Sequence record: OX638288
Length of the DNA stretch: 64,000 nucleotides
Strand: one strand, 5' to 3'
From: Escherichia phage UP19
Part shown: positions 969 to 35,159 of the stretch, piece by piece
Numbering within the stretch: position 1 is the first letter of the stretch
How the letters are laid out: every line of letters starts with the position of its first letter
Notes under the pieces: model-generated
The model's database searches: none
Seen by the model: the letters and a program-made list of their open reading frames with translations, nothing else
Told to the model about the DNA's origin: nothing
Made by a program: the position numbers and the translations under genes

Positions 969-2113
969 TTGAATTATATGATAACTTAATGGGCCTGGTT
1001 AAAAACTCGACTAAATCTAAGTTCTTCTTTAAAGACTTTCAGAGTGCGCTAGGAGTCAACTATCGCATCTTTAGTTATAACTATGCATCGTACAGTGATT
1101 GGTTGGAAGACGGCGCACTAGAGTGCCGAGGCATTATGTTTGAAATGGACGAGAACGGTCCGGTACGTATTGCTGCTCGTCCTATGCAAAAGTTCTTTAA
1201 CCTCGACGAAAACCCGTTGACCATTGGTTTGGATTTATCACAAGGAAATATCGACCTCGTAATGGCTAAGGAAGATGGTTCCTTGATTTCTACCTTCATG
1301 GACCGACAATATCTTTCTGTTAAATCTAAAGGCTCTATCCATTCATCAATGGTGCATGATTCTTTACGTTTCCTTCGACTCCCTGAAAACGAGGCCTTCG
1401 CTGCTCGTTTAGAAGAAATTACTAAAGCAGGCTATACATGTAACCTCGAGTATGTTTCGCCTACTAACCGTATTGTGCTGGCTTACCAAGAAACAAACCT
1501 TATCTTACTTAACGTTCGTAATAACGAAACGGGTGAATATATCCCTTACGCTGAACTGTTTAAAGATGGCGCTCTGCGTAAGCATTTGGTTAAAAGCTAT
1601 GAACTCTCTGAAGGTGATTTTGTTGACAATATCCGTAAACAAGAGGGTATTGAAGGCTTTATCTTTGTACTTAAAGATGGCACGTTCTTTAAACTCAAAA
1701 CCGCTTGGTATAGCGCACTGCATCATACCAAAGATTCCATTAATAATAACGAACGTTTATTTGAAGTTGTAGTGGCTGGTGGAACTGATGACCTCCGAGG
1801 TTTGTTCAGTACGGATTCGTTTGCTATTGAGAAAATCAATACATTTGAACGTATCCATTTAGACTACTTAGAACAGTCCTTGGCTTTGTTAGAAGCAGCA
1901 TATTCTCAGCTCAAGGGCCGCGACCGTAAGGACTACGCTGTTACCGGTCAGTTAATCCTCAAAGACTTCCCAGGGCTGTTCTCTATTCTTATGCAGGCGT
2001 ACGTAGGCGGTATTAATTATGATACGGTCGTAGACCAGATTAACTCTGTGTTCTTGAAAAATCATAAGGCCCAAATCCCTGAAAAATATTTGAAAGAAAT
2101 TGTTATAGAGTAG
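965..2113 (+). CDS. rnlA: RNA ligase 1 (gene 63)
   Basis: 382 aa; N-terminal ..YRIFSYNYASYSDW..ALECRGIMFE.. and KEDGSL nucleotidyl-transferase motif; ATGA overlap with denA stop. Confidence 0.9.
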   Translation: MIELYDNLMGLVKNSTKSKFFFKDFQSALGVNYRIFSYNYASYSDWLEDGALECRGIMFEMDENGPVRIAARPMQKFFNLDENPLTIGLDLSQGNIDLVMAKEDGSLISTFMDRQYLSVKSKGSIHSSMVHDSLRFLRLPENEAFAARLEEITKAGYTCNLEYVSPTNRIVLAYQETNLILLNVRNNETGEYIPYAELFKDGALRKHLVKSYELSEGDFVDNIRKQEGIEGFIFVLKDGTFFKLKTAWYSALHHTKDSINNNERLFEVVVAGGTDDLRGLFSTDSFAIEKINTFERIHLDYLEQSLALLEAAYSQLKGRDRKDYAVTGQLILKDFPGLFSILMQAYVGGINYDTVVDQINSVFLKNHKAQIPEKYLKEIVIE

Positions 2114-2144
2114 TTTACATCTCCTCATGATGTGTTAGTATAGA
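2113..2144 (+). promoter_or_regulatory. T4-type early promoter (GTTTAC -35 at 2113-2118, TAGTAT/TATAGA -10 at 2136-2144) inside a 9-bp inverted repeat (2120-2128 / 2156-2164) that includes the SD
   Basis: GTTTACA ... 17 nt ... TAGTAT; TCTCCTCAT / ATGAGGAGA inverted repeat; ATG of alc at 2172. Confidence 0.55.
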
Positions 2145-2171
2145 CCTACCAACTAATGAGGAGAAAACAAA

Positions 2172-2672
2172 ATGAATATGCAAATGATTACTAACGAAAT
2201 GGTTGTTAAAGCTTTTGGTGATTCTACTGACGGTATCCAAGTTTTTAAAGGTTCTCGTGCGGTAGGTTACCTAACCGATCTTCGTGTTACTTTAGCCAAA
2301 AATGCTAAAAAGAAAATCAAGCAAAAAGAATATTCTACCCGTTATGCAGAAGAAAAGCGTGAAGCCATGCCTGAAGCTGTTAACTCTATGGTTGAGTTTC
2401 TCCAAAACAACCTTTCTAAGTATGATGCTGAGGTATTCATTAATATCAGTCAGCCTAATGTTAAAATCGCAGGAATCACATTCTATTTGATTTGCGACCC
2501 ATTAAGTGACAAGTTTAATCGCCTTGGCATTTCCAGCCCTTACCATACTGCTGAAGAATTGTGTGTGATGTTTGAAACATACAAAATTCAGTGTGAAAAT
2601 CCTAAAACGGTTCTTATCAACTCCCTGTCACGTGATGACATCATCGAGATTATTACCAAATGTCTAAATTAA
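2172..2672 (+). CDS. alc: Alc-like host transcription termination protein (by position and size)
   Basis: 166 aa (T4 Alc is 167 aa); lies between rnlA and pseT.3 as in T4; no motif verification possible. Confidence 0.55.
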   Translation: MNMQMITNEMVVKAFGDSTDGIQVFKGSRAVGYLTDLRVTLAKNAKKKIKQKEYSTRYAEEKREAMPEAVNSMVEFLQNNLSKYDAEVFINISQPNVKIAGITFYLICDPLSDKFNRLGISSPYHTAEELCVMFETYKIQCENPKTVLINSLSRDDIIEIITKCLN

Positions 2673-3013
2673 GTATTTACCTTTTAGCTGGAGCCATTGT
2701 AGTAGGTGCTTACAGTCTTATTTCGTATCAATCAAGCCGTATTGATACCCTTACTGAAGAACTGAAAACAACCCAGCAAACAGCTAAACAGAACGCTGAA
2801 GCTGTTGATGACCTTCGTGGTCAATACTCTGATATTGAATTCCGTACTACTGAAATGAATGCCCGAATGGATAAAATTAAGGCAGAAAATGAAAAGCTCC
2901 GTAAAGATTCGAAGAAGGCGCACGTGGTGGCAAGTAAGCCAGGATTGGTCGAAAAACAAATCAACAAGTCCTTCGATTCCTTTACAGAAGACTTCAGGAG
3001 CATCACAGAATGA
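2660..3013 (+). CDS. pseT.3: i-spanin (inner-membrane spanin subunit)
   Basis: 117 aa; N-terminal TM helix (LSIYLLAGAIVVGAYSLI) followed by charged coiled-coil periplasmic domain; followed by lipoprotein partner. Confidence 0.7.
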   Translation: MSKLSIYLLAGAIVVGAYSLISYQSSRIDTLTEELKTTQQTAKQNAEAVDDLRGQYSDIEFRTTEMNARMDKIKAENEKLRKDSKKAHVVASKPGLVEKQINKSFDSFTEDFRSITE

Positions 3014-3300
3014 TTAAATTGGCTGCTGTAATGTTATCTATTGGCTTGTTAGTTGGATGTGCCCAGGACATCCCTGTAGCGCCTAAGCAACAACTCCACC
3101 CTTCATGGCCACAACCTATTGCCGAACATAATGTTAAATGGCAGGTTAAGGTAATCGACGGTAAGGCTTGGGTTGGTATGCCATTTGAAGACTCGCAAGA
3201 ACACAGAATTTGGTTGAACGACGTAAAAAGATATGTACAAGACCAGAAATCTATGTTATGTTATTATCGTTCCGGACTAAAAGAGGAGAAGTGCAAATGA
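3010..3300 (+). CDS. pseT.2: o-spanin (outer-membrane lipoprotein spanin subunit)
   Basis: 96 aa; signal peptide with lipobox LLVGC; start overlaps i-spanin stop (ATGA). Confidence 0.7.
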   Translation: MIKLAAVMLSIGLLVGCAQDIPVAPKQQLHPSWPQPIAEHNVKWQVKVIDGKAWVGMPFEDSQEHRIWLNDVKRYVQDQKSMLCYYRSGLKEEKCK

Positions 3301-3404
3301 TTGAAGCCTGTATCGATGGGTGGGACGTTTTTAAATTCGGTGCTGCATGTTTTTGCTTTGGTATCGTGTTCAGCCTGTGTATGAATGGTATTTTTGGGAA
3401 GTAG
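3297..3404 (+). CDS. hypothetical 35-aa hydrophobic peptide (MIEACIDGWDVFKFGAACFCFGIVFSLCMNGIFGK)
   Basis: ATG overlaps pseT.2 stop (ATGA coupling); single predicted TM segment; below the 60-aa ORF-track cutoff. Confidence 0.3.
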   Translation: MIEACIDGWDVFKFGAACFCFGIVFSLCMNGIFGK

Positions 3405-3438
3405 TTTACAAACTCTTGGGAGCAGAGTATAATGCTCC
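3404..3438 (+). promoter_or_regulatory. T4-type early promoter (GTTTAC 3404-3409, TATAAT 3428-3433) with GGAGCA/TGCTCC inverted repeat bracketing the -10
   Basis: GTTTACA ... 18 nt ... TATAAT; inverted repeat 3419-3424 / 3433-3438. Confidence 0.55.
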
Positions 3439-3467
3439 TACGGATTATAAAAATTGAGGAAATTATT

Positions 3468-3946
3468 ATGACATTACGTGATAACAGTTTTGTGGCTAAG
3501 CCTGAATACATTTCAAGTATTAAATCTCCTGTATTACAAAAGCTCCTTAAACTAGGGTCCTGTGCAAGCACTCCTATTGAAAAGAAGGCAACTTTCGATT
3601 TTGCTTGGGCTATTGTGGACGGTATTGATGTAGTAAGACAGGTAACTTTTTATGCTCCAGGGTCTATTGAGCCTTCACAGATTATTAATTTGAACGGAAG
3701 TAATTATATTACCATCCAACAGTGGTATCGTATGATGCGACCTGTTTGGGAATACCCTGAATTCATTGAAGAGTACAATGAAAAAGAACGTATTCGTGAG
3801 CTAGTAAAAAGTTTTGAATACGCAGCTAAACGCCACGGCCAGATGCAGCAAGCTGTGGCTTTAGGTGATGTTGATGAAAAATCAGCATATGAAAGTGGTA
3901 AACTTCTGAAAACCTGTCGCGAAGAACTTTATAAGGAGCTTGGTGT

Positions 3947-3950
<4 letters not shown>
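3468..3950 (+). CDS. hypothetical protein (pseT-region accessory ORF)
   Basis: 160-aa ORF with SD GAGG 8 nt upstream of ATG 3468; follows the early promoter cassette. Confidence 0.55.
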
Positions 3951-5168
<1,218 letters not shown>

Positions 5169-5169
<1 letters not shown>

Positions 5170-5366
5170 TGAATAATATCGAAAAGATTTTTCGTACAAT
5201 CGAAGAAATTGAAAAACGTAAATGCTTTTTCTTCGGCGTATGGCCTTTAACTGATGGACGTATTGGCCTGGATGTTATGGACTATAAAGATGAGGACAAG
5301 GTCGATGGTGGTATTTTTAAATCCGCTCCTGAACTCCTTGCCTTCTTGGAAGAACATTATGTATAA
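5169..5366 (+). CDS. hypothetical protein
   Basis: 65-aa ORF, start overlaps pseT stop. Confidence 0.45.
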
Positions 5367-5574
5367 CAAACACCATGAAGTTGAAGAAGAAGCTTATAAA
5401 GAGCTTCAGAAACTGGTAGGTCAGAATATGTCTCCTACCCTCATTAACTCACTAGCGGCTCTCCGTAACGATTTGAATGAACGTTATAAAGGCGAGTACT
5501 ATGTTGAGTTCGTTCCTCTGACTGAAGTCGTTGACCGGTTTATTGTTAACGTGAAGGTCCATACAGTACACTGA
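5359..5574 (+). CDS. hypothetical protein
   Basis: 71-aa ORF starting at internal ATG 5359 of track ORF 5254..5574. Confidence 0.4.
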   Translation: MYNKHHEVEEEAYKELQKLVGQNMSPTLINSLAALRNDLNERYKGEYYVEFVPLTEVVDRFIVNVKVHTVH

Positions 5575-5581
5575 GGTAATT

Positions 5582-5860
5582 ATGTTCCCTACTTATTCCG
5601 AAATTGTTAAAGTAGTTTTTAGTCAGATTGTATCTGATTACCTATACGAACCCGTCGACACCTCGATTGAACTAAAAGTTCACGGACGTTTGTCTGCTAT
5701 TCTGGAAATCATGTTCCCGGATGCAGTTGATGCGATCACTGTCCAACTCACGTCTGGCGCAGCATTTGCAATTGTTCCATTTAAAATTGATAACCACATT
5801 TTGGCTATTTCATGCAAAATGGACTTCCAGAAACAAACGGTAGTTGTCGAAGCAATTTAA
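5582..5860 (+). CDS. hypothetical protein
   Basis: 92-aa ORF. Confidence 0.45.
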   Translation: MFPTYSEIVKVVFSQIVSDYLYEPVDTSIELKVHGRLSAILEIMFPDAVDAITVQLTSGAAFAIVPFKIDNHILAISCKMDFQKQTVVVEAI

Positions 5861-5862
5861 GT

Positions 5863-5901
5863 GTTTACATCATGGTAGGACTGTGGTATAGTAGTCCTAC
5901 C
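5863..5901 (+). promoter_or_regulatory. T4-type early promoter (GTTTAC 5863-5868, TATAGT 5887-5892) with its -10 in the loop of a perfect 9-bp inverted repeat (GGTAGGACT 5874-5882 / AGTCCTACC 5893-5901)
   Basis: Seen directly; followed by leader ..AAACAAATGAGGAA..ATG (5923). Confidence 0.55.
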
Positions 5902-5922
5902 GAAACAAATGAGGAAATCGAA

Positions 5923-6474
5923 ATGGGTAAGTTCTTTGAAGAGCGTAAGTTTTATAAGTTCATTAGCGAATACACTAAAAACAAATTCACTAATAACGGT
6001 GCTTATGCCCTCAATACAGCTTTTGCCAAGTATGTAGGTATGAATCCGTTTGAAGTTGAAATTGATTACCATAATGGGTGTGAACGTGTAAGCCGAATTC
6101 GTGTATATGACGAGATGATGTTTGTCGACCCTAGCAAAATCACCGGTAATCCTGATGATGCAAATACTGTTCTTTTTAATTCAACAGGCCTTTTTGGCCA
6201 TGAATTCGAATACTTCATTGAAGTAGTACGTCCACTGGCCTCGGTGAGTATTCCTGAAAATGGACCTAAACCAGTAAAAGCCACTGCTGATTGGAAAGTG
6301 CTTATTGTTAAAAATGGTAAGATTGAAGTCCATTCTCGCCATAACACAAAGGAACAAGCCGACCGTCAAGCCGAAGAGCTTTTGACCAGTTCGTTCCAAC
6401 AAGTGTGTTATATTGTTAAGGGCGACGTTACCCAAGCTACCACTACCAAACAACTTAAGTTGGAGACCATCTAA
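5923..6474 (+). CDS. hypothetical protein
   Basis: 183-aa ORF from ATG 5923 with SD GAGGAA; follows early promoter cassette. Confidence 0.55.
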   Translation: MGKFFEERKFYKFISEYTKNKFTNNGAYALNTAFAKYVGMNPFEVEIDYHNGCERVSRIRVYDEMMFVDPSKITGNPDDANTVLFNSTGLFGHEFEYFIEVVRPLASVSIPENGPKPVKATADWKVLIVKNGKIEVHSRHNTKEQADRQAEELLTSSFQQVCYIVKGDVTQATTTKQLKLETI

Positions 6475-6707
6475 TGCTGAGCGAACAACCTATTACTGTA
6501 GAGCAGTTCCAAGTTAAAGTTAAAGAATTTGCTCAGGCTCTGATTAATAAGGTTTCTGTACGTTTTCCTGATGCAACTCTGCGAGTAATTCAGGAATCAC
6601 CGCGTGCAGTATTGGTTATCGTTAATCCTAAAGATGGCGACCAGATTACCCAGTTGAAACTCGGTTCTGATGGTCTGGTCGAAGCACAGCGAGTGTATGT
6701 AGAATGA
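6474..6707 (+). CDS. hypothetical protein
   Basis: 77-aa ORF, coupled to flanking genes. Confidence 0.45.
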   Translation: MLSEQPITVEQFQVKVKEFAQALINKVSVRFPDATLRVIQESPRAVLVIVNPKDGDQITQLKLGSDGLVEAQRVYVE

Positions 6708-7249
6708 AAGCAAGCACATATCTTCAGATTGCATATCTTATTTCTCAGGAATCAAAATGTTGTTCATGGAAAGTGGGCGCGGTTATTGAAAAGAATGGCC
6801 GCATTATTTCTACAGGGTATAATGGTTCGCCGTCTGGTGGTGTTAACTGTTGTGACCATGCAGTGGAACAGGACTGGACTCGTGTTGTGTATGACACGGC
6901 CCGAATGTCCCATAAATCGATTCTTCTTAAAGAACATCGTATGGCTCATGCTGCATGGTCATCCAAAAATGAAATCCATGCTGAACTGAATGCTATCCTG
7001 TTTGCAGCTCGTACAGGAAGTTCTATTGACGGTGCTACGATGTATGTGACACTGTCCCCATGTGCAGATTGTGCTAAGTCTATTGCGCAGTCCGGAATTA
7101 AAACGCTGGTTTATGCTGAACTCTATGACCGAAATCCTGAAGGATGGGATGATATCCTCCGTGAATCGGGCATCGAAGTTATCCAGTATAACCGTACCGG
7201 TCTCCGTTCTCTGAACTGGGAATCAATTCAAAACTATTGTGGTGAATAA
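6704..7249 (+). CDS. cd: dCMP deaminase
   Basis: 181 aa; zinc-binding cytidine/deoxycytidylate deaminase motifs HAELNAI and PCADC. Confidence 0.9.
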   Translation: MKASTYLQIAYLISQESKCCSWKVGAVIEKNGRIISTGYNGSPSGGVNCCDHAVEQDWTRVVYDTARMSHKSILLKEHRMAHAAWSSKNEIHAELNAILFAARTGSSIDGATMYVTLSPCADCAKSIAQSGIKTLVYAELYDRNPEGWDDILRESGIEVIQYNRTGLRSLNWESIQNYCGE

Positions 7250-7482
7250 TGAAATTTCGTCTAGTTAAGTTTTCAGGTCTGAATTCAAAAGGTGAAAGCT
7301 TAGTAGCCTATTCAGTAGAATACAAAAAGTACTTTTTCTCTCGATGGAAATCGTACTATAAATCTGAGTGGGTTTATGCCAACATGAAATACAAAACGGT
7401 GCCTATTCTTGATAATTGCCATAGCCTATTAAGAGCTCTAAAAGAGCGTAATGCAACCACTATTAAAACTATTCTGGAATAA
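7249..7482 (+). CDS. hypothetical protein (31.2-like position)
   Basis: 77-aa ORF between cd and gene 31. Confidence 0.45.
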   Translation: MKFRLVKFSGLNSKGESLVAYSVEYKKYFFSRWKSYYKSEWVYANMKYKTVPILDNCHSLLRALKERNATTIKTILE

Positions 7483-7484
7483 TT

Positions 7485-7784
7485 ATGATTTTAACTGAAC
7501 AAGAAACTATTCGACTCCGTGAAAAAGCCAAGACTATTCTGTCTGTAGGTACTCACGAAGTTCTGTTTGAAAAGGCGGATGGTAGTGTTCGTCGTATGAC
7601 TTGTACTCGCGACCTGGACCTCCTCCCGTATAAAGAAATTCAAGCCCCGGGCCCAGAAGCTAATAAAGAACCGGTTAATTATATTCGTGTATTTGATACC
7701 AAGGTTAATGACTGGCGCTCGTTCCGTTTCGATAAACTGATTTCTATTAATGGGCTTCAGACTGAAACTCTGCTTGTCCTGTAA
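7485..7784 (+). CDS. hypothetical protein (31.1-like position)
   Basis: 99-aa ORF between cd and gene 31. Confidence 0.45.
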   Translation: MILTEQETIRLREKAKTILSVGTHEVLFEKADGSVRRMTCTRDLDLLPYKEIQAPGPEANKEPVNYIRVFDTKVNDWRSFRFDKLISINGLQTETLLVL

Positions 7785-7786
7785 TA

Positions 7787-7811
7787 TGCTTTAAGAATAG
7801 CGTGTTATTAT
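7787..7811 (+). promoter_or_regulatory. candidate T4 middle promoter (MotA box TGCTTTA 7787-7793, -10 TATTAT 7806-7811) for gene 31
   Basis: MotA-box consensus TGCTTtA about 12 nt upstream of an A/T-rich -10. Confidence 0.4.
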
Positions 7812-7842
7812 TAACCTATCAACAAAACAACATGGATTAAAT

Positions 7843-8166
7843 ATGGAACTTCCTATTAAAGCGGTCGGAGAATATGTTATTCTCGTTTCCGAACCAAAAC
7901 AAGCTGGTGATGAAGAAACTACTGCATCTGGTATCGTTATTGGCAAACTTCATCAAGGTGAAATCCCTGAACTTTGTGAAATTTATTCTGTAGGACCTGA
8001 TGTCCCTGAAGGTTTTTGTGAAGTAGGTGATTTGACTCCACTTCCTGTTGGTAAGATTGCTAACGTGCCCCATCCGTTGGTTGCATTGGGTATTAAACAG
8101 CCTAAAGAAATTAAACAGAAATTCGTTACCTGTCACTATAAAGCTATTCCGTGTCTTTATAAGTGA
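7843..8166 (+). CDS. 31: GroES-like co-chaperonin for major capsid protein folding (gp31)
   Basis: 107 aa; ..[18 protein letters not shown].. and C-terminal ..[17 protein letters not shown] matching T4 gp31. Confidence 0.9.
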
Positions 8167-8174
8167 TATAAATA
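8167..8174 (+). promoter_or_regulatory. late promoter motif TATAAATA upstream of rIII
   Basis: Exact TATAAATA immediately after gene 31 stop. Confidence 0.45.
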
Positions 8175-8312
8175 ATAATATGGATTGGCTGCCGGACTAG
8201 TTAGTTAACCGGAGAATCCTAAGCGGTGGACTACAACTGAGAGACTTGCCGAAAGGAAGTGAAATTCAGAAGAACGTGTCCACCAATCTTTATCTCGAAT
8301 CGAGAATTTAAA

Positions 8313-8561
8313 ATGAACAAACATCTGAATCACGCTCTTGAACTGCAACGCAACGCTTGGAACAACGGTCACGAAAACTACGGCGCATCTATTGATGTTG
8401 AAGCCGAAGCACTGGAAATCCTGCGTTATTTCAAACATCTTAATCCGGCTCAGGCTACTCTGGCTGCTGAACTGGAAGCAAAAGATGAACTGAAATATGC
8501 TAAGCCTTTGGCTTCAGCAGCTCGTAAAGCAGTACGTCATTTTATTATTACCCTGAAGTAA
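8313..8561 (+). CDS. rIII: RIII lysis-inhibition accessory protein
   Basis: 82 aa from ATG 8313 (MNKHLNH..ELQRNAWNNGHENYGASIDVEAEALEILRYFKHL..) matching T4 RIII. Confidence 0.85.
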   Translation: MNKHLNHALELQRNAWNNGHENYGASIDVEAEALEILRYFKHLNPAQATLAAELEAKDELKYAKPLASAARKAVRHFIITLK

Positions 8562-8913
8562 AATCGAGGAGCCGTCGAACTGTCTGATTAATGATTTGCG
8601 AATCATTATAGTTTTAAGACCCCAGCAGTTTTACGGTGTACCTCTTGAATGTATTTTATAGCGGCAAGTGCATGCTACCCCGAGGTGATGGCCAATCGGG
8701 AGTACGCCTCAAGGCCTATATATCCATCAGTATATATCTTATCCTCGAGAAATCGAACCCGGAACCTTTAAGCTAACGGTGTGCAACAGATAAGAGCTAT
8801 GATGACGAGGTTTACGGTTATCCTGTCGTTAAATATCTAAAACCTATGTTCCCCTTGAGGGCTTGCGCAGGCAATGTCAATAAGTCCTGCATCCTAATTT
8901 AAGAGATTTAAAA
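8562..8913. other. 352-nt ORF-free region with several stem-loops; candidate structured RNA, regulatory region or decayed gene
   Basis: No ORF of 60 aa or more on either strand and frequent stops in all frames; largest non-coding gap in the window. Confidence 0.4.
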
Positions 8914-9075
8914 ATGGCTAAGAAAGAAGTTAAAGTAGTTGACGGAACCTCTAAACGCGCTGGTTACAAGCGTGCGTCTAACAAGCGTATCAATCAGGTA
9001 GTTGATAAGCTTCAAGCTCGTGCTCGTGCAGTATTGCGTGCAGATGCTGCTTGCTTCGGTAAAGTTATTGCATAA
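8914..9075 (+). CDS. hypothetical small basic protein (53 aa)
   Basis: ATG 8914, stop 9073-9075, immediately followed by a strong intrinsic terminator. Confidence 0.45.
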   Translation: MAKKEVKVVDGTSKRAGYKRASNKRINQVVDKLQARARAVLRADAACFGKVIA

Positions 9076-9080
9076 GTTAT

Positions 9081-9104
9081 GGGACTCTTCGGAGTCCCAT
9101 TTTT
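9081..9104 (+). terminator. rho-independent terminator (GGGACTC-TTCG-GAGTCCC + T-run)
   Basis: 7-bp perfect stem, TTCG loop, TTTTT at 9100-9104. Confidence 0.8.
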
Positions 9105-9129
9105 GTTTCTAAATCTTTAAAAAAAAAGG

Positions 9130-9161
9130 GTATACATCTCCGGTAGGCATGATACTATAGA
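9130..9161 (+). promoter_or_regulatory. early promoter-like element (GTATAC -35-like, TACTAT/TATAGA -10) preceded by an A-tract; cassette A
   Basis: A9 tract then GGTATACA..17 nt..TACTATAGA. Confidence 0.45.
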
Positions 9162-9202
9162 CATGTACCAAATAATACGAAAACAAACTGGAGAATAAAA
9201 TG
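9158..9202 (+). repeat. 45-nt leader repeat copy A (TAGACATGTACCAAATAATACGAAAACAAACTGGAGAATAAAATG)
   Basis: 44/45 identical to 9564-9608; ends in start codon of ORF 9200. Confidence 0.9.
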
Positions 9203-9532
9203 AAAACTGTAAACCTGAATGCATCTGTTAAAGCTAAATGTTTCAACGGTGAATATCAAGAAACCATGTGGGTCCTGACTGCAGTTGAAGGTGATATCAT
9301 CGAAGTTGAAACAACTGAAGGTATGGGTACTGATTTCACATTTACCATCGAGCTTCACAACTTCTTTACAGGTTGGATTTATGAACTGAAAACTGTAATT
9401 ACTGGTCGTATCGAAGAAAACAAAATTGGTGAATTCTATTACGTTAATGCCCGTACACGTGCTGAACGTCTGATTGCTCAGATGAAAAAAGTTGGTAAAC
9501 TTGATATGAAAAATTGGAATGTTGTGAAATAA
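9200..9532 (+). CDS. hypothetical protein
   Basis: 110-aa ORF behind leader copy A. Confidence 0.55.
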   Translation: MKTVNLNASVKAKCFNGEYQETMWVLTAVEGDIIEVETTEGMGTDFTFTIELHNFFTGWIYELKTVITGRIEENKIGEFYYVNARTRAERLIAQMKKVGKLDMKNWNVVK

Positions 9533-9535
9533 ATG

Positions 9536-9576
9536 TTTTACTTTGGTACAGGTTGTGTTATTATAGACCTGTACCA
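9536..9576 (+). promoter_or_regulatory. early promoter-like element (TTTTAC 9536-9541, TATTAT 9559-9564) with its -10 in the loop of an 8-bp inverted repeat (GGTACAGG 9546-9553 / CCTGTACC 9569-9576); cassette B
   Basis: Seen directly. Confidence 0.45.
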
Positions 9577-9608
9577 AATAATACGAAAACAAACTGGAGA
9601 ATAAAATG
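9564..9608 (+). repeat. 45-nt leader repeat copy B
   Basis: 44/45 identical to 9158-9202; ends in start codon of ORF 9606. Confidence 0.9.
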
Positions 9609-9971
9609 AACTACATCAACTTCGAACGTAAATATGTTTCTAACGGTAACGCTGGTTCTTCTGAAGTTATTTGTCTGTGGAAACACAACAACGGCACAGT
9701 GTGCGAAATCGAACAGTGCATGACTCCTAACTACGTTTATATGCGCTTTGAAAATGGTATCACGGTTTCAATCACTATGGAAGGTTCTACTTTTAAAATC
9801 GCTTTGGATGATGATTTCCGTCAACGTGATTTAGGCACCCATCCTTGCTGGAACGGTGATAATCGTAAGCTTCTGGTTAAAACCTGGATTCGTCACATCC
9901 TGAGCAACCGTGCTAAACCTGAACACCTGGAAGCAATCTTTGTTGTAGTTCTGAATGAATTTGATATCTAA
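9606..9971 (+). CDS. hypothetical protein
   Basis: 121-aa ORF behind leader copy B; unrelated in sequence to ORF 9200. Confidence 0.55.
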   Translation: MNYINFERKYVSNGNAGSSEVICLWKHNNGTVCEIEQCMTPNYVYMRFENGITVSITMEGSTFKIALDDDFRQRDLGTHPCWNGDNRKLLVKTWIRHILSNRAKPEHLEAIFVVVLNEFDI

Positions 9972-9981
9972 TCTTAAAAAT

Positions 9982-10000
9982 GGAGGCTTCGGCCTCCTTT
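9982..10000 (+). terminator. stem-loop GGAGGC-TTCG-GCCTCC + TTT (terminator or attenuator)
   Basis: 6-bp GC stem with TTCG loop right after stop of ORF 9606. Confidence 0.6.
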
Positions 10001-13804: not shown

Positions 13805-15892
13805 ATGACCGAACAATTGAATGAGGTGTTTGAGTCCGAAGGCACCCTGCCTACTGTAAACTTAAACCCAAAACTTAAAGTACCCCAGATTTGGAAGATT
13901 GGCGACGCCGAATCCCAATTAGTTGCTCGTATGGTATCTTATGCCTCTGAAGGCGATGCTATTAAACAGGTTAAATTAGGTGATAAATATGCCCACGTTA
14001 TTTTGATGAGTTTATCAGCTAAAGGTACTCCAGCCGAACTTAAAGGTGGATTAGGCCTTACTCCTATTGATGCTATTAATACCATTTTCGACGTAGTATT
14101 CGAACAAGTTAAAAAGCTTCGTATGGATGCTGTGATGTTCCGTTTTCCAACCAAGAAAATGAAAGGACAAGGACCTATTGTCCAACGGATTATCCAACGT
14201 TTGGTAGCACAGAAAACCGGTGGACGTTTTAAAGTAGTTCCAGCCATGTACCAATTTACCGGTAAACATACTTATATCCTAGTAGTGCGTAAACAAGCTG
14301 ATATCGAAGATATCAAAGGTATGCCTGGAATTAATGCCGAATTATATACTAAGGTAGATTCTGATGTTGGTGAAGTTTATATTTCTAAAAAAGAAGGCGC
14401 TCAGGTTACTAAAGAAACCGCTATTGCCGGCAGTATTGCTAAAGTTGAAGAACGTCGCACTGATAAAATGGTTATAACCAAGACTAAGATTTCTCGTCGT
14501 GCGATTGCGGCAAGCCAGTCATTAGAAGCAGACCGTAATGAAGGTGAATTATTTCAGAAATATGAACAAACTGCCAATGAGTTCAGTGCGCCTGCTACGG
14601 CGGAATTAATTCCACAAGCAGTCGAAGTTGAATTATCATTATCATCCGAAACAGCTAAGGATAAGCTGGCTACGGCTATTGATTTTAAAATTTATAATAC
14701 TATGGATGATTCATTTAAATTTGCGGATGAAGTTTCTTACGGTGATAAAATTAACTCTTCTTTAGAAAAATTTGTCAAAAAAATTAAAAATGAAAAAACC
14801 ACGTCAGTTAAAGCTTTAGCCGCCTTTGTTGAAGCTGCTAATGAAATCGCAGAATCTATTAAAAGTGATTGGTTTGAAGATTATAGAAAAGACAATTTCC
14901 ATTTGGAAAAAGAGATATTGAATGAAAACAGTGAAAGAGTATGGAAACAACGTAAGTCTTCATTCTTGTCTAAGATAATGTATACATACGCTATAGAATC
15001 AACTAGAGAAATTCTTAATATAACAACATCTCGAGACCCTAAACAATATACACTTGCAGAAAAACGAGCTATCAGAGAATACGCCTCTTCAGCTTATATT
15101 GATATTAACAATGTCCTTCTTGGCCGTTATAAACCGGGCTTTTATGAAGTTTTGGACGAAAGCGAAGTTAAACGTGCTATTGATGGAATGGATTCTGCCT
15201 TTAAAAATGGTGACCGTTTACCTGAAGGAATAATGGTTTATAGAGCACAATCTTTGCGCGCGCCTATCTACGAAGCATTAGTTAAAAATAAGGTATTCTA
15301 TTTTAGAAACTATGTTTCAACCTCATTGGCCCCAATCATTTTTGGTGGCTTTAAAGAGAATGCGGCTATTGGTCTTGCTTCCGATGATGTTCGAAAAGAA
15401 TTAAACATTGATAATAATGACGAAGGCGTTACCATCTCGGCTAGTCAAGTGCGTACACATATGTATGCGCCGGATCAAATCCGTGTTGATGTTGGCTGGG
15501 CTATTAGTGGCGCTCATAAGGTTAACGTGATTTATCCTGGCCAATTAAGCATGCATGCCAACGAAAAGGAAATAATTTTACCACGCGGGCTACTTGTAAA
15601 AATAGATAAAATCGTGGATGCATCAGCCAATACTGGTTCTGGGGCGGTGTCTAACAATAAATTTATTCAAGCTGAAGTTATGACATCAGATGAGCTTCAA
15701 GAATCTGTAGTGTATGATGGTGACGTACTAATGGAAACCGGCGAGTTGGTTGTGTATCAAGATGATTTCGATACTTCCGAAAGCCCTGTATCTTTTGATT
15801 CATTTGTTAAATCTACACGGTTTGATGTACTGCCTCTTTTGGCTTCATGCATAGACCTCTATGGCATCCCAGAAAAATTCATCCAAGGGTAA
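13805..15892 (+). CDS. alt: Alt-type ADP-ribosyltransferase, paralog 1 (virion-packaged, RNA-polymerase-modifying family)
   Basis: 695 aa; Alt-like N-terminus; C-terminal R-S-E ART signature (..YRAQS.. / ..VSTSL.. / ..EIILPRGL..). Confidence 0.9.
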   Translation: MTEQLNEVFESEGTLPTVNLNPKLKVPQIWKIGDAESQLVARMVSYASEGDAIKQVKLGDKYAHVILMSLSAKGTPAELKGGLGLTPIDAINTIFDVVFEQVKKLRMDAVMFRFPTKKMKGQGPIVQRIIQRLVAQKTGGRFKVVPAMYQFTGKHTYILVVRKQADIEDIKGMPGINAELYTKVDSDVGEVYISKKEGAQVTKETAIAGSIAKVEERRTDKMVITKTKISRRAIAASQSLEADRNEGELFQKYEQTANEFSAPATAELIPQAVEVELSLSSETAKDKLATAIDFKIYNTMDDSFKFADEVSYGDKINSSLEKFVKKIKNEKTTSVKALAAFVEAANEIAESIKSDWFEDYRKDNFHLEKEILNENSERVWKQRKSSFLSKIMYTYAIESTREILNITTSRDPKQYTLAEKRAIREYASSAYIDINNVLLGRYKPGFYEVLDESEVKRAIDGMDSAFKNGDRLPEGIMVYRAQSLRAPIYEALVKNKVFYFRNYVSTSLAPIIFGGFKENAAIGLASDDVRKELNIDNNDEGVTISASQVRTHMYAPDQIRVDVGWAISGAHKVNVIYPGQLSMHANEKEIILPRGLLVKIDKIVDASANTGSGAVSNNKFIQAEVMTSDELQESVVYDGDVLMETGELVVYQDDFDTSESPVSFDSFVKSTRFDVLPLLASCIDLYGIPEKFIQG

Positions 15893-15895
15893 ATA

Positions 15896-18019
15896 ATGGA
15901 AAATTTAAACGAGGTTTTTGATAGTGATTCCGCTAAAAACTATCCAGTAACAAATCTTAAACCAGGTTCCGGTATTCCACAGATTTTCTCTATCCAAGCA
16001 CCAGGTAATGATAATCTGGTTGCTCGTATGGTATCTTATGCGTCTCAAGGAGACGCTATTAAAATGGTTAAGCCTGGCGACAAATACGTTCATGTTATTT
16101 TGATGAGTTTGTCTAGCAAGGGTGCTCCGGCTGAACTCAAAGGTGGCCTTGGTTCTGACCCACTTGGTACACTGAATACTATTTTCGATACTGTATACGA
16201 ACAAGTAAACAAACTTAAAATGGATGCAGTTTTGTTCCGTTTCCCTACCAAGAAAATGAAAGGTAAGGGTCCTACCGTTCAGCGTGTATTAGCTCGTTTG
16301 GTGATGGCACGTACCGGTGGTAAGTTTAAAGTTGTCGATGATATGTTCCAGTTTAGTGGTAAACATACATACGTTCTTTTAGTACGTCGTGGTTCTAATA
16401 TCGAAGATATCAAGGGTATGCCTGAAATTGATGCCGATCTTTATACCAAGGTTGAGTCTAAAGTTGGCGAAGTTTATGTTTCTAAGAAAACAGGCCAGGC
16501 CGTAAGTAAGGTCGAAGCCGTAGCGGCATCTATCGCCCAGGTTGAAGAAAAACGTACCGATAAGGCTGTCATCTCTCGTACTAAGATTTCCCGTCGTATG
16601 GCTGCAGCAGCGCAGTATTCTACTTCCGAACCTGAAACTTTATCCCCTAAAGAATTGCAGGTTTATAATGAGTTTGAAGCTTCTGTACCTGTTCATTCGG
16701 CTGAAGGTCCTGAGAACGAAGGTATTGAACAGATTAGCCAGAACTTTAAAAAAGGTGCTATTACTAAAATGCGTCAGGCCTCTCAGTTTAAATCTAAGAG
16801 TGAGGACCTTGCCAACTTTAGATACACCATTGCTCTCACGCACGCTTTAATGACTGATAGTAAATTTAAACTAAATTATGCTAATAGAGATAAACAAGGG
16901 TTTGAAATTTACTCTAATAATATGGCATTTTTTAATACAGAAGTCGATAGACTTTTAAGTGGCCTTTCTCAAATCAATACTACCAATAGTCTGGATATTA
17001 TTAAGAGAATTGTTAATAACCTGAGCGCCCGTTTTCAGGGATCTCCTTCAGAGAAAGCATCCCGAATTGCTTTCGCTATGGAAGCCGTTTATAAACTGAT
17101 TAACGATTCTATTGGCGATGCGTATGCTTATTCAGGTGAGCTCATTAAACCTAAGGGCTTGACTAAAGACGAAAGCAATGCTATTATTGAATATTGCGCA
17201 GCTGAATATGCTCCTATGAACTTATTCCTTTTAGGTAAACCTGAATCCGAAAACAATACAACGGCTATTAAATTGATTAAGGATTTAGACTCAGCATTTA
17301 CTAAGGGTATTAAACTCCCTAAGGGTACTATTTTGTATCGTGGTCAGGATTTGCCATACAAAATTCTGCGTCATAATATCGATAACAAAACATTTTACTT
17401 TAAGAACTTTGTGTCAGCCTCATTAAAGCCTAACATCTTTGGTGAATTCGGTAAAAATTATATGGCCCTCGACAACCAAGCCGTTTTTGTTGGTGGTGAA
17501 GGTTCTTTATCCTCCGCTGATGAGTTGTTTAAATTGGCTAGTGGTAGTTCATCTGATGTGGGTGAAGTCGATGACGAAGAGGTAGAATGGGAAGAAGACG
17601 AGTTTGGTAATCCAATTGCACCTGAAGGCCCTGCAGACAGGATTGCTGAAATCGGTATGGTTATTCGAGGTGCTGAAGCAGTTAAAGTTATCGCTCCTGG
17701 CGACCTTACAGAATATGCTGAAGAAGCAGAAATTATCCTTCCGCGTGGATTATTGATGAAGGTTGATAAAGTAGCGGCTTTTGCTATGAATGATAGGGTA
17801 TCTCACAAATACCTTATGGAAGCTACAGTGACGTCTCCTTCAGAACTCAGTGAATCCGTTTACGATGGCGACCATCTGATGGAAACTGGCGAAGTTAAAT
17901 TGATGAATGGGTTTAAAGAATTCCTAGTTTCAGAATCTGTTTCAGAAAGTAATGAGGCTATGGAAATCCTTGCTGCATCTTTGGACATCTCTTCTTTATC
18001 AAATAAATTCAAAATGTAG
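15896..18019 (+). CDS. Alt-type ADP-ribosyltransferase, paralog 2
   Basis: 707 aa; N-terminal 150 aa closely similar to paralog 1, divergent middle, R-S-E signature retained (..YRGQD.. / ..VSASL.. / ..EIILPRGL..). Confidence 0.85.
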   Translation: MENLNEVFDSDSAKNYPVTNLKPGSGIPQIFSIQAPGNDNLVARMVSYASQGDAIKMVKPGDKYVHVILMSLSSKGAPAELKGGLGSDPLGTLNTIFDTVYEQVNKLKMDAVLFRFPTKKMKGKGPTVQRVLARLVMARTGGKFKVVDDMFQFSGKHTYVLLVRRGSNIEDIKGMPEIDADLYTKVESKVGEVYVSKKTGQAVSKVEAVAASIAQVEEKRTDKAVISRTKISRRMAAAAQYSTSEPETLSPKELQVYNEFEASVPVHSAEGPENEGIEQISQNFKKGAITKMRQASQFKSKSEDLANFRYTIALTHALMTDSKFKLNYANRDKQGFEIYSNNMAFFNTEVDRLLSGLSQINTTNSLDIIKRIVNNLSARFQGSPSEKASRIAFAMEAVYKLINDSIGDAYAYSGELIKPKGLTKDESNAIIEYCAAEYAPMNLFLLGKPESENNTTAIKLIKDLDSAFTKGIKLPKGTILYRGQDLPYKILRHNIDNKTFYFKNFVSASLKPNIFGEFGKNYMALDNQAVFVGGEGSLSSADELFKLASGSSSDVGEVDDEEVEWEEDEFGNPIAPEGPADRIAEIGMVIRGAEAVKVIAPGDLTEYAEEAEIILPRGLLMKVDKVAAFAMNDRVSHKYLMEATVTSPSELSESVYDGDHLMETGEVKLMNGFKEFLVSESVSESNEAMEILAASLDISSLSNKFKM

Positions 18020-18048
18020 TTTACAACACCACAAGGATGTGGTACTAT
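18019..18048 (+). promoter_or_regulatory. T4-type early promoter (GTTTAC 18019-18024, TACTAT 18043-18048) with hairpin ACCACA-AGGA-TGTGGT (18028-18043) in the spacer
   Basis: Seen directly; leader ..ACAAACATGAGGAG..ATG (18077). Confidence 0.5.
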
Positions 18049-18076
18049 TACCTTACACAAACATGAGGAGAACATT

Positions 18077-18367
18077 ATGAAATCTGCATTCCGTTTTAAT
18101 GGTCAGGAACTGGTAGTTGAAAACGTTATCCCTGCTTCTGAAGAGTTCGACAGTGCAGTCGGTAATGAATTACGTCGAGTTTTCGGCGAAGACAAACAGT
18201 TCGACTTACGTCCGGTTGAAAATTTTTCACAACCTGAGCAAACCGAAAATATCTTTAATGGCGTAGTAACCGGTCAGCTTGAATCTGAAGCTCCTATTTC
18301 TATCACAGTCTTTGTTAAAAAGCAACCACTAATGACCGCAGCAGGTTTTATCTCGTTCCGTAAATAA
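18077..18367 (+). CDS. hypothetical protein
   Basis: 96-aa ORF with SD GAGGAG; between alt and gene 54. Confidence 0.5.
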   Translation: MKSAFRFNGQELVVENVIPASEEFDSAVGNELRRVFGEDKQFDLRPVENFSQPEQTENIFNGVVTGQLESEAPISITVFVKKQPLMTAAGFISFRK

Positions 18368-18374
18368 ACCCCTA

Positions 18375-18401
18375 AAGGAGAGCGTAAGCTCTCCTTTTTT
18401 T
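18375..18401. terminator. bidirectional rho-independent terminator (AAAGGAGAGC-GTAA-GCTCTCCTTT + T7) between converging transcripts
   Basis: 10-bp stem flanked by A-run and T-run; separates plus-strand early block from minus-strand gene 54. Confidence 0.8.
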
Positions 18402-26483: not shown

Positions 26484-26711
26484 TTAGAACTCTTCTTGCT
26501 CTTCGTCATCCATAGATTCCAATTCAGCTCGTTTACCTGCTAAGGCATCACGAACACTGATATCGTCCGAATCTCGAAGTTCAGCTTCTTTACTACGAGT
26601 TTTGTAATACTTTTCCAATTCCTTCAAACCGTCCATGGTTTGACAAGAACTAATTTTAGACATGAAGCTCTCGATAGAGGCTTCATAGATAACTTCTTTA
26701 AAGGACTTCAT
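26484..26711 (-). CDS. small helical protein, UvsW.1-like by position
   Basis: 75 aa, acidic C-terminus; sits where UvsW.1 follows uvsW in T4 but separated from uvsW by the HNH gene. Confidence 0.45.
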   Translation of the reverse strand: MKSFKEVIYEASIESFMSKISSCQTMDGLKELEKYYKTRSKEAELRDSDDISVRDALAGKRAELESMDDEEQEEF

Positions 26712-27403
26712 AAATCCACCTGTTTCATTAAATTTCTGATTTTGTGACGAGAAAGACCCGTGGCTTCGGAAGCTTGTTTCATCGAGCCATATTCAACACC
26801 ATTTATAGTAACCTTTTTAGCTGCTGGGTTTTTAGATGGGTCTTTATATCTTTCTTTAGCTTTATCTGAAATTTTCTTAGAAGCTTCTGGCGTATGATTT
26901 TTACCATACATGCCGTTGCCAGCACCGGAATTTCTTTCAGATATAGCTTGACATTGTTCTTGCATGTATTTATAAGGATTCGCTTTTTTAGTTGCGGATA
27001 TTTTATCGCCCCATAAAATAGGCCTACCTTTAAATAAATTGCTCATGTATTCTTTATGGGCTTCAGTGTGGTGCTTACCATAAAATGGATTTCCTTCGCC
27101 AGTCTGAAGAATTGCCAATTGTCTACGTTCCCACCCGTATGATTTACTAAATTGTCTTTTATGGGTCCTGGAACTCATACCCATAGAAATAACAGCTTTT
27201 ATGAGACCGTAGTTATTTGGATAAATTTTAGCCAGTAATTTATGAGCTATAAAATGTTCTTCTGGGGTAAGGCGTACTCTATTTTCCCGAGTATCGGGCC
27301 CGCCCATACAAGTCGGGATTATATGATGGGACTCGGTGTACCCGAGAGGTTTAGAAGCCTTTCGGCTTCTAATTAAATTGTCATAAATCTTTTGATAATT
27401 CAA
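26708..27403 (-). CDS. HNH homing endonuclease with NUMOD3-like DNA-binding repeats
   Basis: 231 aa; HNH core ..ESHHIIPTCMGGPDTRENRVRLTPEEHFIAHKL..; repeated GxxxYGKxHTxEx(K)KIS motifs; ATGA-coupled on both sides. Confidence 0.85.
   Translation of the reverse strand: MNYQKIYDNLIRSRKASKPLGYTESHHIIPTCMGGPDTRENRVRLTPEEHFIAHKLLAKIYPNNYGLIKAVISMGMSSRTHKRQFSKSYGWERRQLAILQTGEGNPFYGKHHTEAHKEYMSNLFKGRPILWGDKISATKKANPYKYMQEQCQAISERNSGAGNGMYGKNHTPEASKKISDKAKERYKDPSKNPAAKKVTINGVEYGSMKQASEATGLSRHKIRNLMKQVDL
26708..27403 (-). mobile_element. free-standing HNH homing endonuclease gene inserted between uvsW and uvsW.1-like ORF
   Basis: Same ORF as above; intergenic insertion typical of T4-type homing endonuclease genes. 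Confidence 0.7.
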
Positions 27404-30804: not shown

Positions 30805-30834
30805 GTTTACAAGTTAAAAATTCTATGTTAAGAT
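30805..30834 (+). promoter_or_regulatory. early-type promoter (GTTTAC 30805-30810; -10 about TAAGAT 30829-30834)
   Basis: GTTTACA -35 with A/T-rich -10 at 17-18 nt. Confidence 0.4.
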
Positions 30835-30863
30835 GGATTTACCAACTCAACTAGAGAATTGTT

Positions 30864-31073
30864 ATGGATAAGATTAAAGTACATTTTTTACACGAATCCG
30901 GGTTGAATTTTATAGAAATTGCTAAAAAAATGGGCGGGACCGCTAAAGACATGGCCAAAACATGGGTTGATGTGGAACAAGCCAAAGAGAAATTTAAAAC
31001 AAAAGAGAAAGTGGTATATCGTAAACGTCTAATCAATAAGGTTCGGCGCAAAGCGCGTTCTAGTTCAAAGTAA
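30864..31073 (+). CDS. hypothetical small basic protein (69 aa)
   Basis: ORF with Lys/Arg-rich C-terminus; between hoc and rnlB (24.2/24.3-like position). Confidence 0.45.
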   Translation: MDKIKVHFLHESGLNFIEIAKKMGGTAKDMAKTWVDVEQAKEKFKTKEKVVYRKRLINKVRRKARSSSK

Positions 31074-31075: not shown

Positions 31076-31101
31076 TGCTTTAAATTTACGTGTGTTATAA
31101 T
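31076..31101 (+). promoter_or_regulatory. candidate middle promoter for rnlB (MotA box TGCTTTA 31076-31082, -10 TATAAT 31096-31101)
   Basis: Consensus MotA box 13 nt upstream of consensus -10. Confidence 0.5.
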
Positions 31102-32200: not shown

Positions 32201-32229
32201 AAAGGGACCTTACGGTCCCTTTTATTTTT
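32201..32229. terminator. bidirectional terminator (AAAGGGACC-TTAC-GGTCCCTTT + T-run) between converging rnlB and gene-24 paralog
   Basis: 9-bp stem with flanking A-run and T-run. Confidence 0.8.
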
Positions 32230-34827: not shown

Positions 34828-34860
34828 GTTTACAGCAAGGTTCCCACGTGTTACTATAGT
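34828..34860 (+). promoter_or_regulatory. T4-type early promoter (GTTTAC 34828-34833, TACTATAGT 34852-34860)
   Basis: Same architecture and leader (..AAAACATGAGGAG..ATG) as cassettes at 2113, 5863 and 18019. Confidence 0.5.
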
Positions 34861-34886
34861 CCTATCAAAACATGAGGAGATTAAAA

Positions 34887-35156: not shown

Positions 35157-35159
35157 AAT

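Follow-up and report, generated by a model that had tools for sequence, protein, structure and literature searches.

Escherichia phage UP19 (sequence record OX638288), of which we analyzed a stretch of 64,000 nt (the window), carries a family of promoter–leader cassettes directly in front of individual open reading frames (ORFs), and in several of these cassettes the spacer that separates the −35 box from the −10 box is complementary to sequence further downstream. Permutation tests and comparison with related phages indicate that these inverted repeats are real and under selection for base pairing. They probably encode RNA hairpins confined to transcripts that come in from upstream; at the alc gene, such a hairpin would hide the ribosome-binding site (RBS). 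The window belongs to a JS98-like T-even phage (Dhakavirus; 94–98% identity), and the five cassettes singled out by an initial annotation (sites 1–5) are T4-type early (σ70) promoters plus leaders of a T4-like coliphage, their activity being assigned by homology. The three inverted repeats reported there (2120–2164, 3419–3438, and 5874–5901) proved exact, and three further family members turned up in the window (9131–9202, 9537–9608, and 30806–30866). The following elements make up the cassettes with complementary segments:

2113–2119, + strand: −35 box GTTTACA of site 1 (alc), whose initial G also ends the rnlA stop codon TAG (2111–2113)
2120–2128, + strand: 5′ arm of site 1, TCTCCTCAT, an anti-Shine–Dalgarno (anti-SD) sequence in the promoter spacer, 5′ of the predicted start at about 2148
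2133–2141, + strand: extended −10 of site 1, TGT plus TAGTAT, after a 16-nt spacer
2156–2164, + strand: 3′ arm of site 1, ATGAGGAGA, which includes the alc SD GGAG (2160–2163); alc ATG at 2172
3404–3470, + strand: site 2 cassette, after pseT.2 (TTTACA 3405–3410, TATAAT 3428–3433, SD GAGGAA 3456–3461, ATG 3468)
3419–3424 and 3433–3438, + strand: exact 6-bp repeat of site 2, GGAGCA/TGCTCC
3417–3424 and 3433–3440, + strand: RNA arms of site 2, TGGGAGCA/TGCTCCTA, eight pairs including one G·U, around the −10
5863–5925, + strand: site 3 cassette, between cd.3 and an ORF resembling JS98 orf212 (TTTACA 5864–5869, TGG plus TATAGT 5884–5892, SD GAGGAA 5911–5916, ATG 5923)
5874–5882 and 5893–5901, + strand: arms of site 3, GGTAGGACT/AGTCCTACC, 9 bp, exact
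9131–9202, + strand: additional cassette of gene 30.8 (TATACA 9131–9136, TACTAT 9153–9158, SD GGAGAA 9190–9195, ATG 9200)
9537–9608, + strand: additional cassette of gene 30.7 (TTTACT 9537–9542, TATTAT 9559–9564, SD GGAGAA 9596–9601, ATG 9606)
9543–9553 and 9567–9577, + strand: arms of the 9537 cassette, TTGGTACAGGT/ACCTGTACCAA, 11 bp
18019–18079, + strand: site 4 cassette of alt.-3 (TTTACA 18020–18025, TACTAT 18043–18048, ATGAGGAG 18063–18070, ATG 18077)
18028–18033 and 18038–18043, + strand: spacer-internal hairpin of site 4, ACCACA/TGTGGT

Complementarity between promoter spacers and downstream sequence

The repeats fall into three classes, which share a 5′ arm located in the promoter spacer. 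Class A (site 1; regB, denV, motB.2, 55.6, and others in JS98; alc, alt.-3, regB, denV, and 30.8 in T4) has the leader, with the SD, as its 3′ arm; in class B (sites 2 and 3 and the 9537 cassette), the 3′ arm is the −10/+1 region; and in class C (site 4), both arms are contained within the spacer. A single ancestral repeat bracketing the −10, common to the alc site, site 3, and the 9537 cassette, found no support in the sequence.

Within the window, we assessed the pairing of each spacer with the following 56 nt against that of shuffled spacers. Pairing exceeded the shuffles at site 1 (P = 0.004), site 2 (P = 0.018), site 3 (P = 0.004), and the 9131 and 9537 cassettes (P = 0.000 each), and was not above shuffled spacers at sites 4 and 5 and the 30806 cassette. 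A genome-wide motif search gave access to a larger set: a family model built from seven window sites and scanned over JS98 and T4 identified 39 and 27 cassettes, respectively, all of them on the early strand. Twelve of the 39 JS98 promoters possess a perfect spacer–downstream repeat of at least 8 bp, compared with 0.7% when spacers are shuffled and 8.5% when partners are swapped—a control in which each spacer is paired with the downstream part of another promoter and the family consensus is preserved. The mean observed for JS98 spacers with their own partners was reached by swapped partners in none of 2000 permutations. Likewise, mean duplex energies of own versus swapped pairs were −11.7 versus −8.4 in JS98 and −14.2 versus −8.0 in T4, with 0 of 5000 permutations reaching the observed value in either phage.

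Conservation in relatives and enrichment over shuffled sequence, on which the initial annotation had let its proposal stand or fall, were both observed. The loci we retrieved comprised 13 for PseT and 10 for RnlA (a thin lineage sampling for sites 1–3), 37 for gp54, and 30 for gp24. All six Dhakavirus loci retrieved have the site 1 repeat intact, and the alc promoter of a VR5-like phage carries a 10-bp repeat on a different leader. In T4, the whole alc spacer pairs with the leader up to GAGGACTT, G·U pairs included. Three lineages thus pair the SD region of alc in three ways, namely GGAGA/TCTCC, GAGGACTT/AAGTCC-CTC, and AATGGGG/CCCCGTT, the last being that of a 175-kb lineage; the RB69-like loci L004 and L005 showed no recognizable early promoter before alc. 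Arms of paralogous promoters covary as well (TCTCCATTAG/CTAATGGAGA, TCTCCTGTAG/CTACAGGAGA, and TCTCCTCATG/CATGAGGAGA). An alifold consensus of nine class-A promoters comprised ten pairs, four with compensatory changes. In this alignment, 93% of the cells were paired versus 78% after shuffling, and the covariation score was 0.39 versus 0.14, neither value being reached in any of 500 shuffles; slid controls scored at most 0.07.

The other classes display a similar exchange of sequence under retained complementarity. Between site 2 and its paralogs at JS98 39465 and T4 7214, a G-to-C change in one arm is matched by a C-to-G change in the other. The T4 ortholog of site 3 has GGTAGAG/CTCTACC in place of GGTAGGACT/AGTCCTACC, and further relatives contain a quite different spacer hairpin at this position between the same flanks. 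For the 30.7 promoter at 9537, the T4 ortholog retains GGTACAGG/CCTGTACC. At the alt.-3 promoter (site 4), a spacer hairpin is found in seven or eight of 12 lineages (z about −3) with differing stems, that is, ACCACA/TGTGGT, GCAC/GTGC, TCCAC/GTGGA, ACATCC/GGATGT, ACGCAC/GTGTGT, and ACACA/TGTGT, and T4 has a class-A pairing in its place.

A proposed link between transcript origin and access to the alc ribosome-binding site

We placed start sites by rule, 7 nt after the −10. Since the 5′ arm lies upstream of the start predicted in this way, the promoter's own mRNA would lack the arm and the hairpin could form only in read-through RNA. Such RNA must exist, because the paired window sites begin at a distance of 0–4 nt from the stop codon that precedes them. 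In partition-function folds, the site 1 SD was unpaired with a probability of 0.14 in read-through RNA, where it takes part in a 9-bp helix, and of 0.85 in the transcript started at the alc promoter itself.

We propose the following mechanism. Host σ70 RNA polymerase would use the cassettes immediately after infection, as homology to T4 suggests. On RNA reading through from rnlA, the alc RBS would stay paired, and this RNA would be translated poorly. Pairing might at the same time shield the GGAG from RegB, which cuts this motif in early SDs (consensus GGAGRAYARAA) and needs single-stranded RNA (PMC3014915, PMC1702504). RNA started at the alc promoter would offer a free RBS, such that alc expression would be set by the promoter of origin; for alc—and likewise for regB, denV, and others in JS98 and T4—the immediate-early transcript started at the gene's own promoter would be translated, and read-through RNA made later would not. 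In the 9537 cassette and at sites 2 and 3, the hairpin encloses the −10/+1 region and would still be specific to read-through RNA, with an attenuator, an insulator, or an end-protecting structure as candidate roles. From sequence statistics combined with folding, we infer where transcription starts, that the hairpins form in vivo, and how translation and RegB cleavage are affected.

Strand bias, an excess of G·T mismatches, and avoidance of terminators point to a structure in sense-strand RNA. In the strongly pairing set, sense sequences folded more stably than antisense ones, at −20.0 versus −14.6 kcal/mol in T4 (p = 1e-4) and −16.1 versus −14.2 kcal/mol in JS98 (p = 0.003), and the sense fold was the more stable one for all five window hairpins. 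Mismatches within helices were G·T in 11 cases and A·C in two (p = 0.02; the scoring treats both alike). Finally, strong pairing occurred at only 2 of 15 promoters behind a terminator versus 31 of the 51 others (Fisher p = 0.0025; JS98 and T4 together, tightened terminator definition). The elements that bear on this comparison in the window, besides the paired cassettes given above, are:

9079–9100, + strand: intrinsic terminator just 5′ of the 30.8 promoter
18374–18397: terminator near site 4, called by the terminator scan
30806–30866, + strand: additional cassette of a 24.3-like gene (TTTACA 30806–30811, TAAGAT 30829–30834, ATG 30864)
34828–34889, + strand: site 5 cassette (TTTACA 34829–34834, TACTAT 34852–34857, ATGAGGAG 34872–34879, ATG 34887)

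Among the window sites without pairing above chance, the 30806 cassette is preceded by a terminator and site 5 faces a divergent gene, being located in the gap between gene 24 on the − strand and an orf173-like ORF; neither has a significant repeat. Site 4 is the exception. The 9131 cassette is likewise situated behind a terminator, and its pairing is only imperfect.

Several observations weigh against a read-through-specific hairpin as a general explanation. The SD is accessible at sites 2 and 3 and the 9537 cassette, and hence no one function fits all repeats; the site 4 hairpin is confined to the spacer and shows no gain in stability for the sense over the antisense orientation; and site 5 and the 30806 cassette are devoid of a repeat. 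The strand bias is modest in JS98, where the difference for own pairs was −1.05 as compared with −0.68 for swapped ones, and the G·T count stems in part from near-identical paralogs. The nine sequences in the covariation alignment were picked for their pairing, leaving the own-versus-swapped comparison as the unbiased evidence. Under a looser definition of terminators, the association with strong pairing was not significant (Fisher p = 0.12); this loose set held one obvious false call (J6061), and both the tightening and the inclusion of T4 were made afterwards, in part post hoc. Lastly, only 6 nt separate the rnlA stop from the 5′ arm of site 1, and a ribosome terminating there might partly melt the hairpin, which would couple the two genes in translation instead of causing a block.

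Full translational coupling would mean that the site 1 hairpin shuts the alc RBS until the ribosome finishing rnlA melts it, making read-through translation of alc proportional to that of rnlA. The short distance from the rnlA stop (2111–2113) to the 5′ arm invites this idea, as do the class-A promoters of JS98 and T4, whose upstream stop lies 6–12 nt before the arm. A terminating ribosome covers roughly 9–10 nt past the stop, however, a footprint that would open 0–4 of the 9–10 pairs, and most arms start just beyond its reach; coupling also leaves the hairpins with a free SD unexplained, and we hold it to be improbable. Rated lower still, at a very small chance, is the view that the repeats have no function and arose as a side effect either of the cassettes' common descent or of templated (quasi-palindrome) mutation, for which T4 is a classic system. 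Paralogous cassettes do share a consensus, which inflates cross-pairing to the 8.5% of swapped partners with at least 8 bp, yet the own partner beat the swapped one in every permutation, and orthologous promoters in different genera keep pairing with different sequences. Templated correction would moreover yield perfect Watson–Crick repeats instead of G·U-biased ones, and a mutational process provides no grounds to expect a link to the absence of terminators.

The initial annotation had suggested, from the palindromes around the −10, either a recombinogenic stem-loop (considered below) or an operator for a dimeric regulator. To the latter, a DNA-binding protein that would shut off early promoters, we assign next to no likelihood. 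The repeats do overlap core promoter elements, and the mechanism by which T4 early promoters are shut off has been described as incompletely understood (PMC2988021, PMC3014915). But the promoters have no half-site in common: their arms differ (TCTCCTCAT, GGAGCA, GGTAGGACT, and TTGGTACAGGT) and are 8, 10, 13, or 27 nt apart, and the center of symmetry shifts from the −10 to the leader, with the 3′ arm coinciding with the SD at one site and with the −10/+1 region at others. It is complementarity, not sequence, that is conserved, as the arms covary and show a G·U bias on the sense strand. Furthermore, the repeat is missing from promoters behind terminators, which are equally in need of shut-off.

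Returning to the read-through hairpin, its extension beyond alc may be put forward tentatively, and with clearly less confidence than the local reading. In T-even phages, a third to half of the early promoters would hold a spacer segment complementary to the leader or SD, which could constitute a genome-wide gate on transcript origin, with a cistron being open on its own mRNA (translatable and RegB-sensitive) and closed on read-through RNA (silent and RegB-protected). Such a gate would help to explain the sharp immediate-early shut-off and why RegB destroys early but not middle GGAG transcripts. The regularity itself—many early-promoter spacers complementary to their own leaders in two genera, with covariation, G·U bias, and terminator avoidance—would, if the pairing works in read-through RNA, link promoter sequence, translation initiation, and RegB sensitivity, and would yield predictions on how T-even phages confine Alc, RegB, DenV, and several unknown ORFs to the first minutes of infection.

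Cassettes at junctions of ORF replacement and deletion

Besides the operator, the initial annotation had raised the possibility of a recombinogenic stem-loop resembling the PeSLs, elements composed of an A/T-rich region, an early promoter, a stem-loop, an SD, and a start codon, as described for RB49/phi1, PST/T4, and nt-1/KVP40 (PMC2839356, PMC4122927). Part of this idea was borne out: the cassettes have the same composition, and ORF replacement or deletion junctions coincide with them in relatives, although nothing shows that the stem drives recombination. Like the window cassettes, PeSLs exist in many dispersed copies per genome, mostly in front of small ORFs of unknown function in variable regions, have stems between the −35 and −10 or over the −10, and sit at junctions of ORF indels or replacements. 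The complete PeSL arrangement is present at sites 1–4 and at the 9131 and 9537 cassettes, with no stem at site 5 or at the 30806 cassette.

Comparison of the flanking ORFs with those of relatives, as the initial annotation had envisaged, located junctions at 3461/3471, 5925, 9109, 9206, and 9537. Homology to JS98 ends at 3461, inside the SD of site 2, and resumes at 3780, and the relative L007 lacks 3471–3946, exactly from ATG to ATG. The ORF at 5923–6474 is absent from T4, which fuses the site 3 promoter to cd.2. The 30.8 slot (9207–9536) lies between repeated leaders and is replaced in L004, L005, and L009, and 9109–9984 (this slot plus 30.7) is deleted in L012. Gene 30.8 is bracketed by a 55-nt direct repeat of 95% identity (9150–9204 in its own leader and 9556–9610 in the leader of 30.7), which could readily serve as substrate for mini-circle formation or deletion, as has been proposed for PeSLs.

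Cassette sequence also recurs at other genes. The 76-nt alc cassette has 612 matches spread over 227 phage records, often located at genes other than alc. In T4, the alc and alt.-3 promoters (136335 and 123092) are near-identical over approximately 55 bp despite lying 13 kb apart, and in the VR5-like L093, the alc promoter just after rnlA bears the leader of the alt.-3 promoter, which indicates sequence exchange between these two cassettes in both phages. In another relative (L008, vB_EcoM_005-like), we noticed a 22-nt promoter remnant at approximately 5752–5790, gatactatagacctatcaactt, comprising a −10 and start region directly 5′ of the site 3 −35; it looks like the scar of a recombination between two cassettes.

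As published, PeSL stems terminate or attenuate transcription from upstream, and homologous recombination uses the cassette as a linker to insert, delete, or swap the adjacent ORF, possibly via mini-circles. Transferred to the window, where the repeats would then serve for transcriptional insulation and perhaps as a target of recombination, this model appears doubtful to us, though less so than coupling. In its favor are the composition of the cassettes, which fits the definition including stems between the −35 and −10 or overlapping the −10 (PMC2839356), the junctions in JS98, L007, T4, L004/L005/L009, and L012, the direct repeat flanking gene 30.8, the sequence exchange between alc and alt.-3 cassettes, and the many matches of the alc cassette. 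An intrinsic-terminator role, by contrast, found no support and was set aside: no repeat in the window has a U-tract or was called by the scan, which does call the terminators at 9079–9100 and 18374–18397, and the structure at site 1, with its 9-bp stem and 27-nt loop, is not a terminator. The model rests on homology between cassettes, and those of the window share only 9–13 identical bases, except for the 9150/9556 pair. Indels at about 955, 5170, 6700, and 8660–8798 are located away from any cassette, and the one beside site 5 is a homing-endonuclease-like ORF and no instance of cassette shuffling. The G·U bias, in turn, favors RNA over DNA.

The stems themselves differ, too. Those of RB49 PeSLs are G-run/C-run stems, whereas the window stems are A/T-richer and lack a U-tract; the T4/PST-group stems were placed upstream of the promoter and read as terminators (Fig. 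3 legend of PMC4122927); and the PeSL papers do not mention a class that pairs the spacer with the SD. A PeSL stem was reported to lower expression of a downstream reporter (PMC2839356). A role in recombination and one in RNA are compatible and not mutually exclusive: independently of the hairpins, shared cassette sequence would act as a junction for single-ORF swaps and losses among relatives. These Dhakavirus examples of single-ORF swapping at cassettes are useful for annotating and engineering therapeutic T4-like phages.

The promoter family, known systems, and genome context

The layout that the initial annotation had recognized at the five sites holds: GTTTACA, a TAnnnT −10, a GAGG or GGAG SD, and an ATG, all on the + strand and directly 5′ of an ORF. 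Details required revision. The SD does precede the ATG by 7–8 nt, close to the 8 nt given, but spacers measure 16–17 nt instead of 17–19 nt. Of the supposedly conserved leader, the exact form ATGAGGAG is confined to 2156, 18063, and 34872, with ATGAGGAA at site 3 and TTGAGGAA at site 2. For site 1, TATAGA with a 19-nt spacer gave way to the better −10 candidate TAGTAT (2136–2141), which has an extended −10 (TGT) and a 16-nt spacer. A GTTTAC-type −35, a spacer of 16–18 nt, and a TAnnnT −10 characterize the five sites together with the 9537 and 30806 cassettes, and the 9131 cassette has TATACA; TGn is found at sites 1, 3, 4, and 5 and at the 9537 cassette, but not at site 2. Upstream A-richness reminiscent of an UP element (−40 to −44) stands out at sites 4 and 5 and is less pronounced at sites 1–3. 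The −10 is followed by a leader of about 20–30 nt, and the Dhakavirus consensus keeps a conserved stretch of its own, TACTATAGACCTATCAAC, after the −10.

Simple motifs do not reveal the family. GTTTACA alone was not enriched in the window (13 found, 12.1 expected), and neither were hits of a generic σ70 scan (37 found versus 54.8 expected from shuffles). As both are at or below chance, the family becomes apparent only through the family model or the composite pattern: GTTTAC[AT]-N16-19-TANNNT occurs six times on the + and once on the − strand, compared with 1.18 expected from shuffles, in which the maximum was 4. The designation as early promoter cassettes was correct, given the match to the T4 early consensus (GTTTAC at −36 to −31, TGn, and a −10; PMC1524935, PMC2988021) and the presence of T4 promoters at homologous positions, before alc, cd.2, alt.-3, 30.8, and 30.7; the T4 record names an early promoter, Pe133295, between cd.3 and cd.2, the counterpart of site 3. 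With the T4 early promoters, which are stimulated by Alt (PMC2988021, PMC1524935), the window sites share the GTTTAC −35, a 16–17-nt spacer, TGn at four of five sites, TAnnnT, orientation, and position before early genes, and nothing essential differs at the sequence level. The ORF following site 1 matches the Alc family, those downstream of sites 2, 3, and 5 have no Pfam family, and Rfam returned no match in the window at the gathering threshold.

The nearest mechanistic precedent comes from T4 e, soc, 49, and I-TevI, whose RBS is hidden in long transcripts and in which a promoter inside the structure gives rise to translatable mRNA (PMC3014915). Site 1 has the same geometry, with the promoter between the arms and an own mRNA predicted to lack the 5′ arm. 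However, the internal promoter in those T4 genes is late or middle and that of site 1 is early, which would restrict expression to the immediate-early burst and not delay it; this early-promoter version is found repeatedly in JS98 and T4, at many of their early promoters. Site 1 would therefore employ the same mechanism without being a member of that set. As to RegB targets, the leaders contain GGAG followed by an A-rich stretch. The sequences at 9190–9200 and 9596–9606 (GGAGAATAAAA) match the RegB consensus fully, the SD GGAGAA of the 9131 cassette being followed by TAAAA, and sites 2 and 3 have GGAA, which is reported to be cut very poorly. T4-type early promoters and PeSL-like cassettes are known; what is new is a further set in a JS98-like phage. 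Of an anti-SD in early promoter spacers, or of spacer–leader complementarity, we found no description in the PeSL papers, the T4 reviews consulted, or literature searches; the older T4 literature lay outside the search and may already contain one.

Bases 1500–9500 are 97.7% identical to Escherichia phage EcWhh-1 and 93.6% identical to JS98, in each case over the full length of the segment, and also match hundreds of further T4-like phages; in total, roughly 900 Tevenvirinae genomes match the region. Relative to the JS98 annotation, the + strand gene order is nrdB-denA-rnlA-alc-pseT-cd-31-rIII-30.x-30-alt, and late structural genes on the − strand follow this early block. With the nrdB-to-alt block on the + strand and the late genes on the − strand, the former is the early strand of a Dhakavirus, a genus that encodes the regulatory genes of T4 (alt, modA/B, asiA, motA, and regB, the last being encoded by JS98).

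Around site 4, TCTCTTC at 17986–17992, in the last part of alt, is complementary (one G·U included) to the alt.-3 SD GAGGAGA (18065–18071) and can pair with it in a read-through fold; the unpaired probability of this SD was 0.29 in read-through RNA versus 0.66 in its own transcript, which may reflect chance. Tandem paralogs occur both upstream of this site (two alt genes at 13805–18019, with stretches approximately 74–83% identical) and upstream of site 5 (two gene 24 copies at 32222–34785, approximately 65–72% identity), as in JS98. Three insertions of approximately 680 nt relative to JS98 (26730–27410, 35143–35815, and 41959–42643) contain one ORF apiece: 26708–27403 on the − strand with a NUMOD3 motif, 35160–35819 on the + strand with a weak GIY-YIG/SegE-like match plus a helix-turn-helix, and 41973–42614 on the − strand with no family match. 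These are probably free-standing homing endonuclease genes. A non-coding gap of 350 nt (8562–8913), devoid of an Rfam match, separates rIII from 30.9; within it, the segment 8660–8798 is present in JS98 and is absent from, or swapped for approximately 45 nt in, several other relatives. Finally, look-alikes of middle (MotA-dependent) promoters, consisting of TGCTTTA, 12–13 nt, and TATTAT or TATAAT, stand 5′ of gene 31 (7787–7811) and rnlB (31076–31101), and the stretch after their −10 resembles that of the early cassettes.

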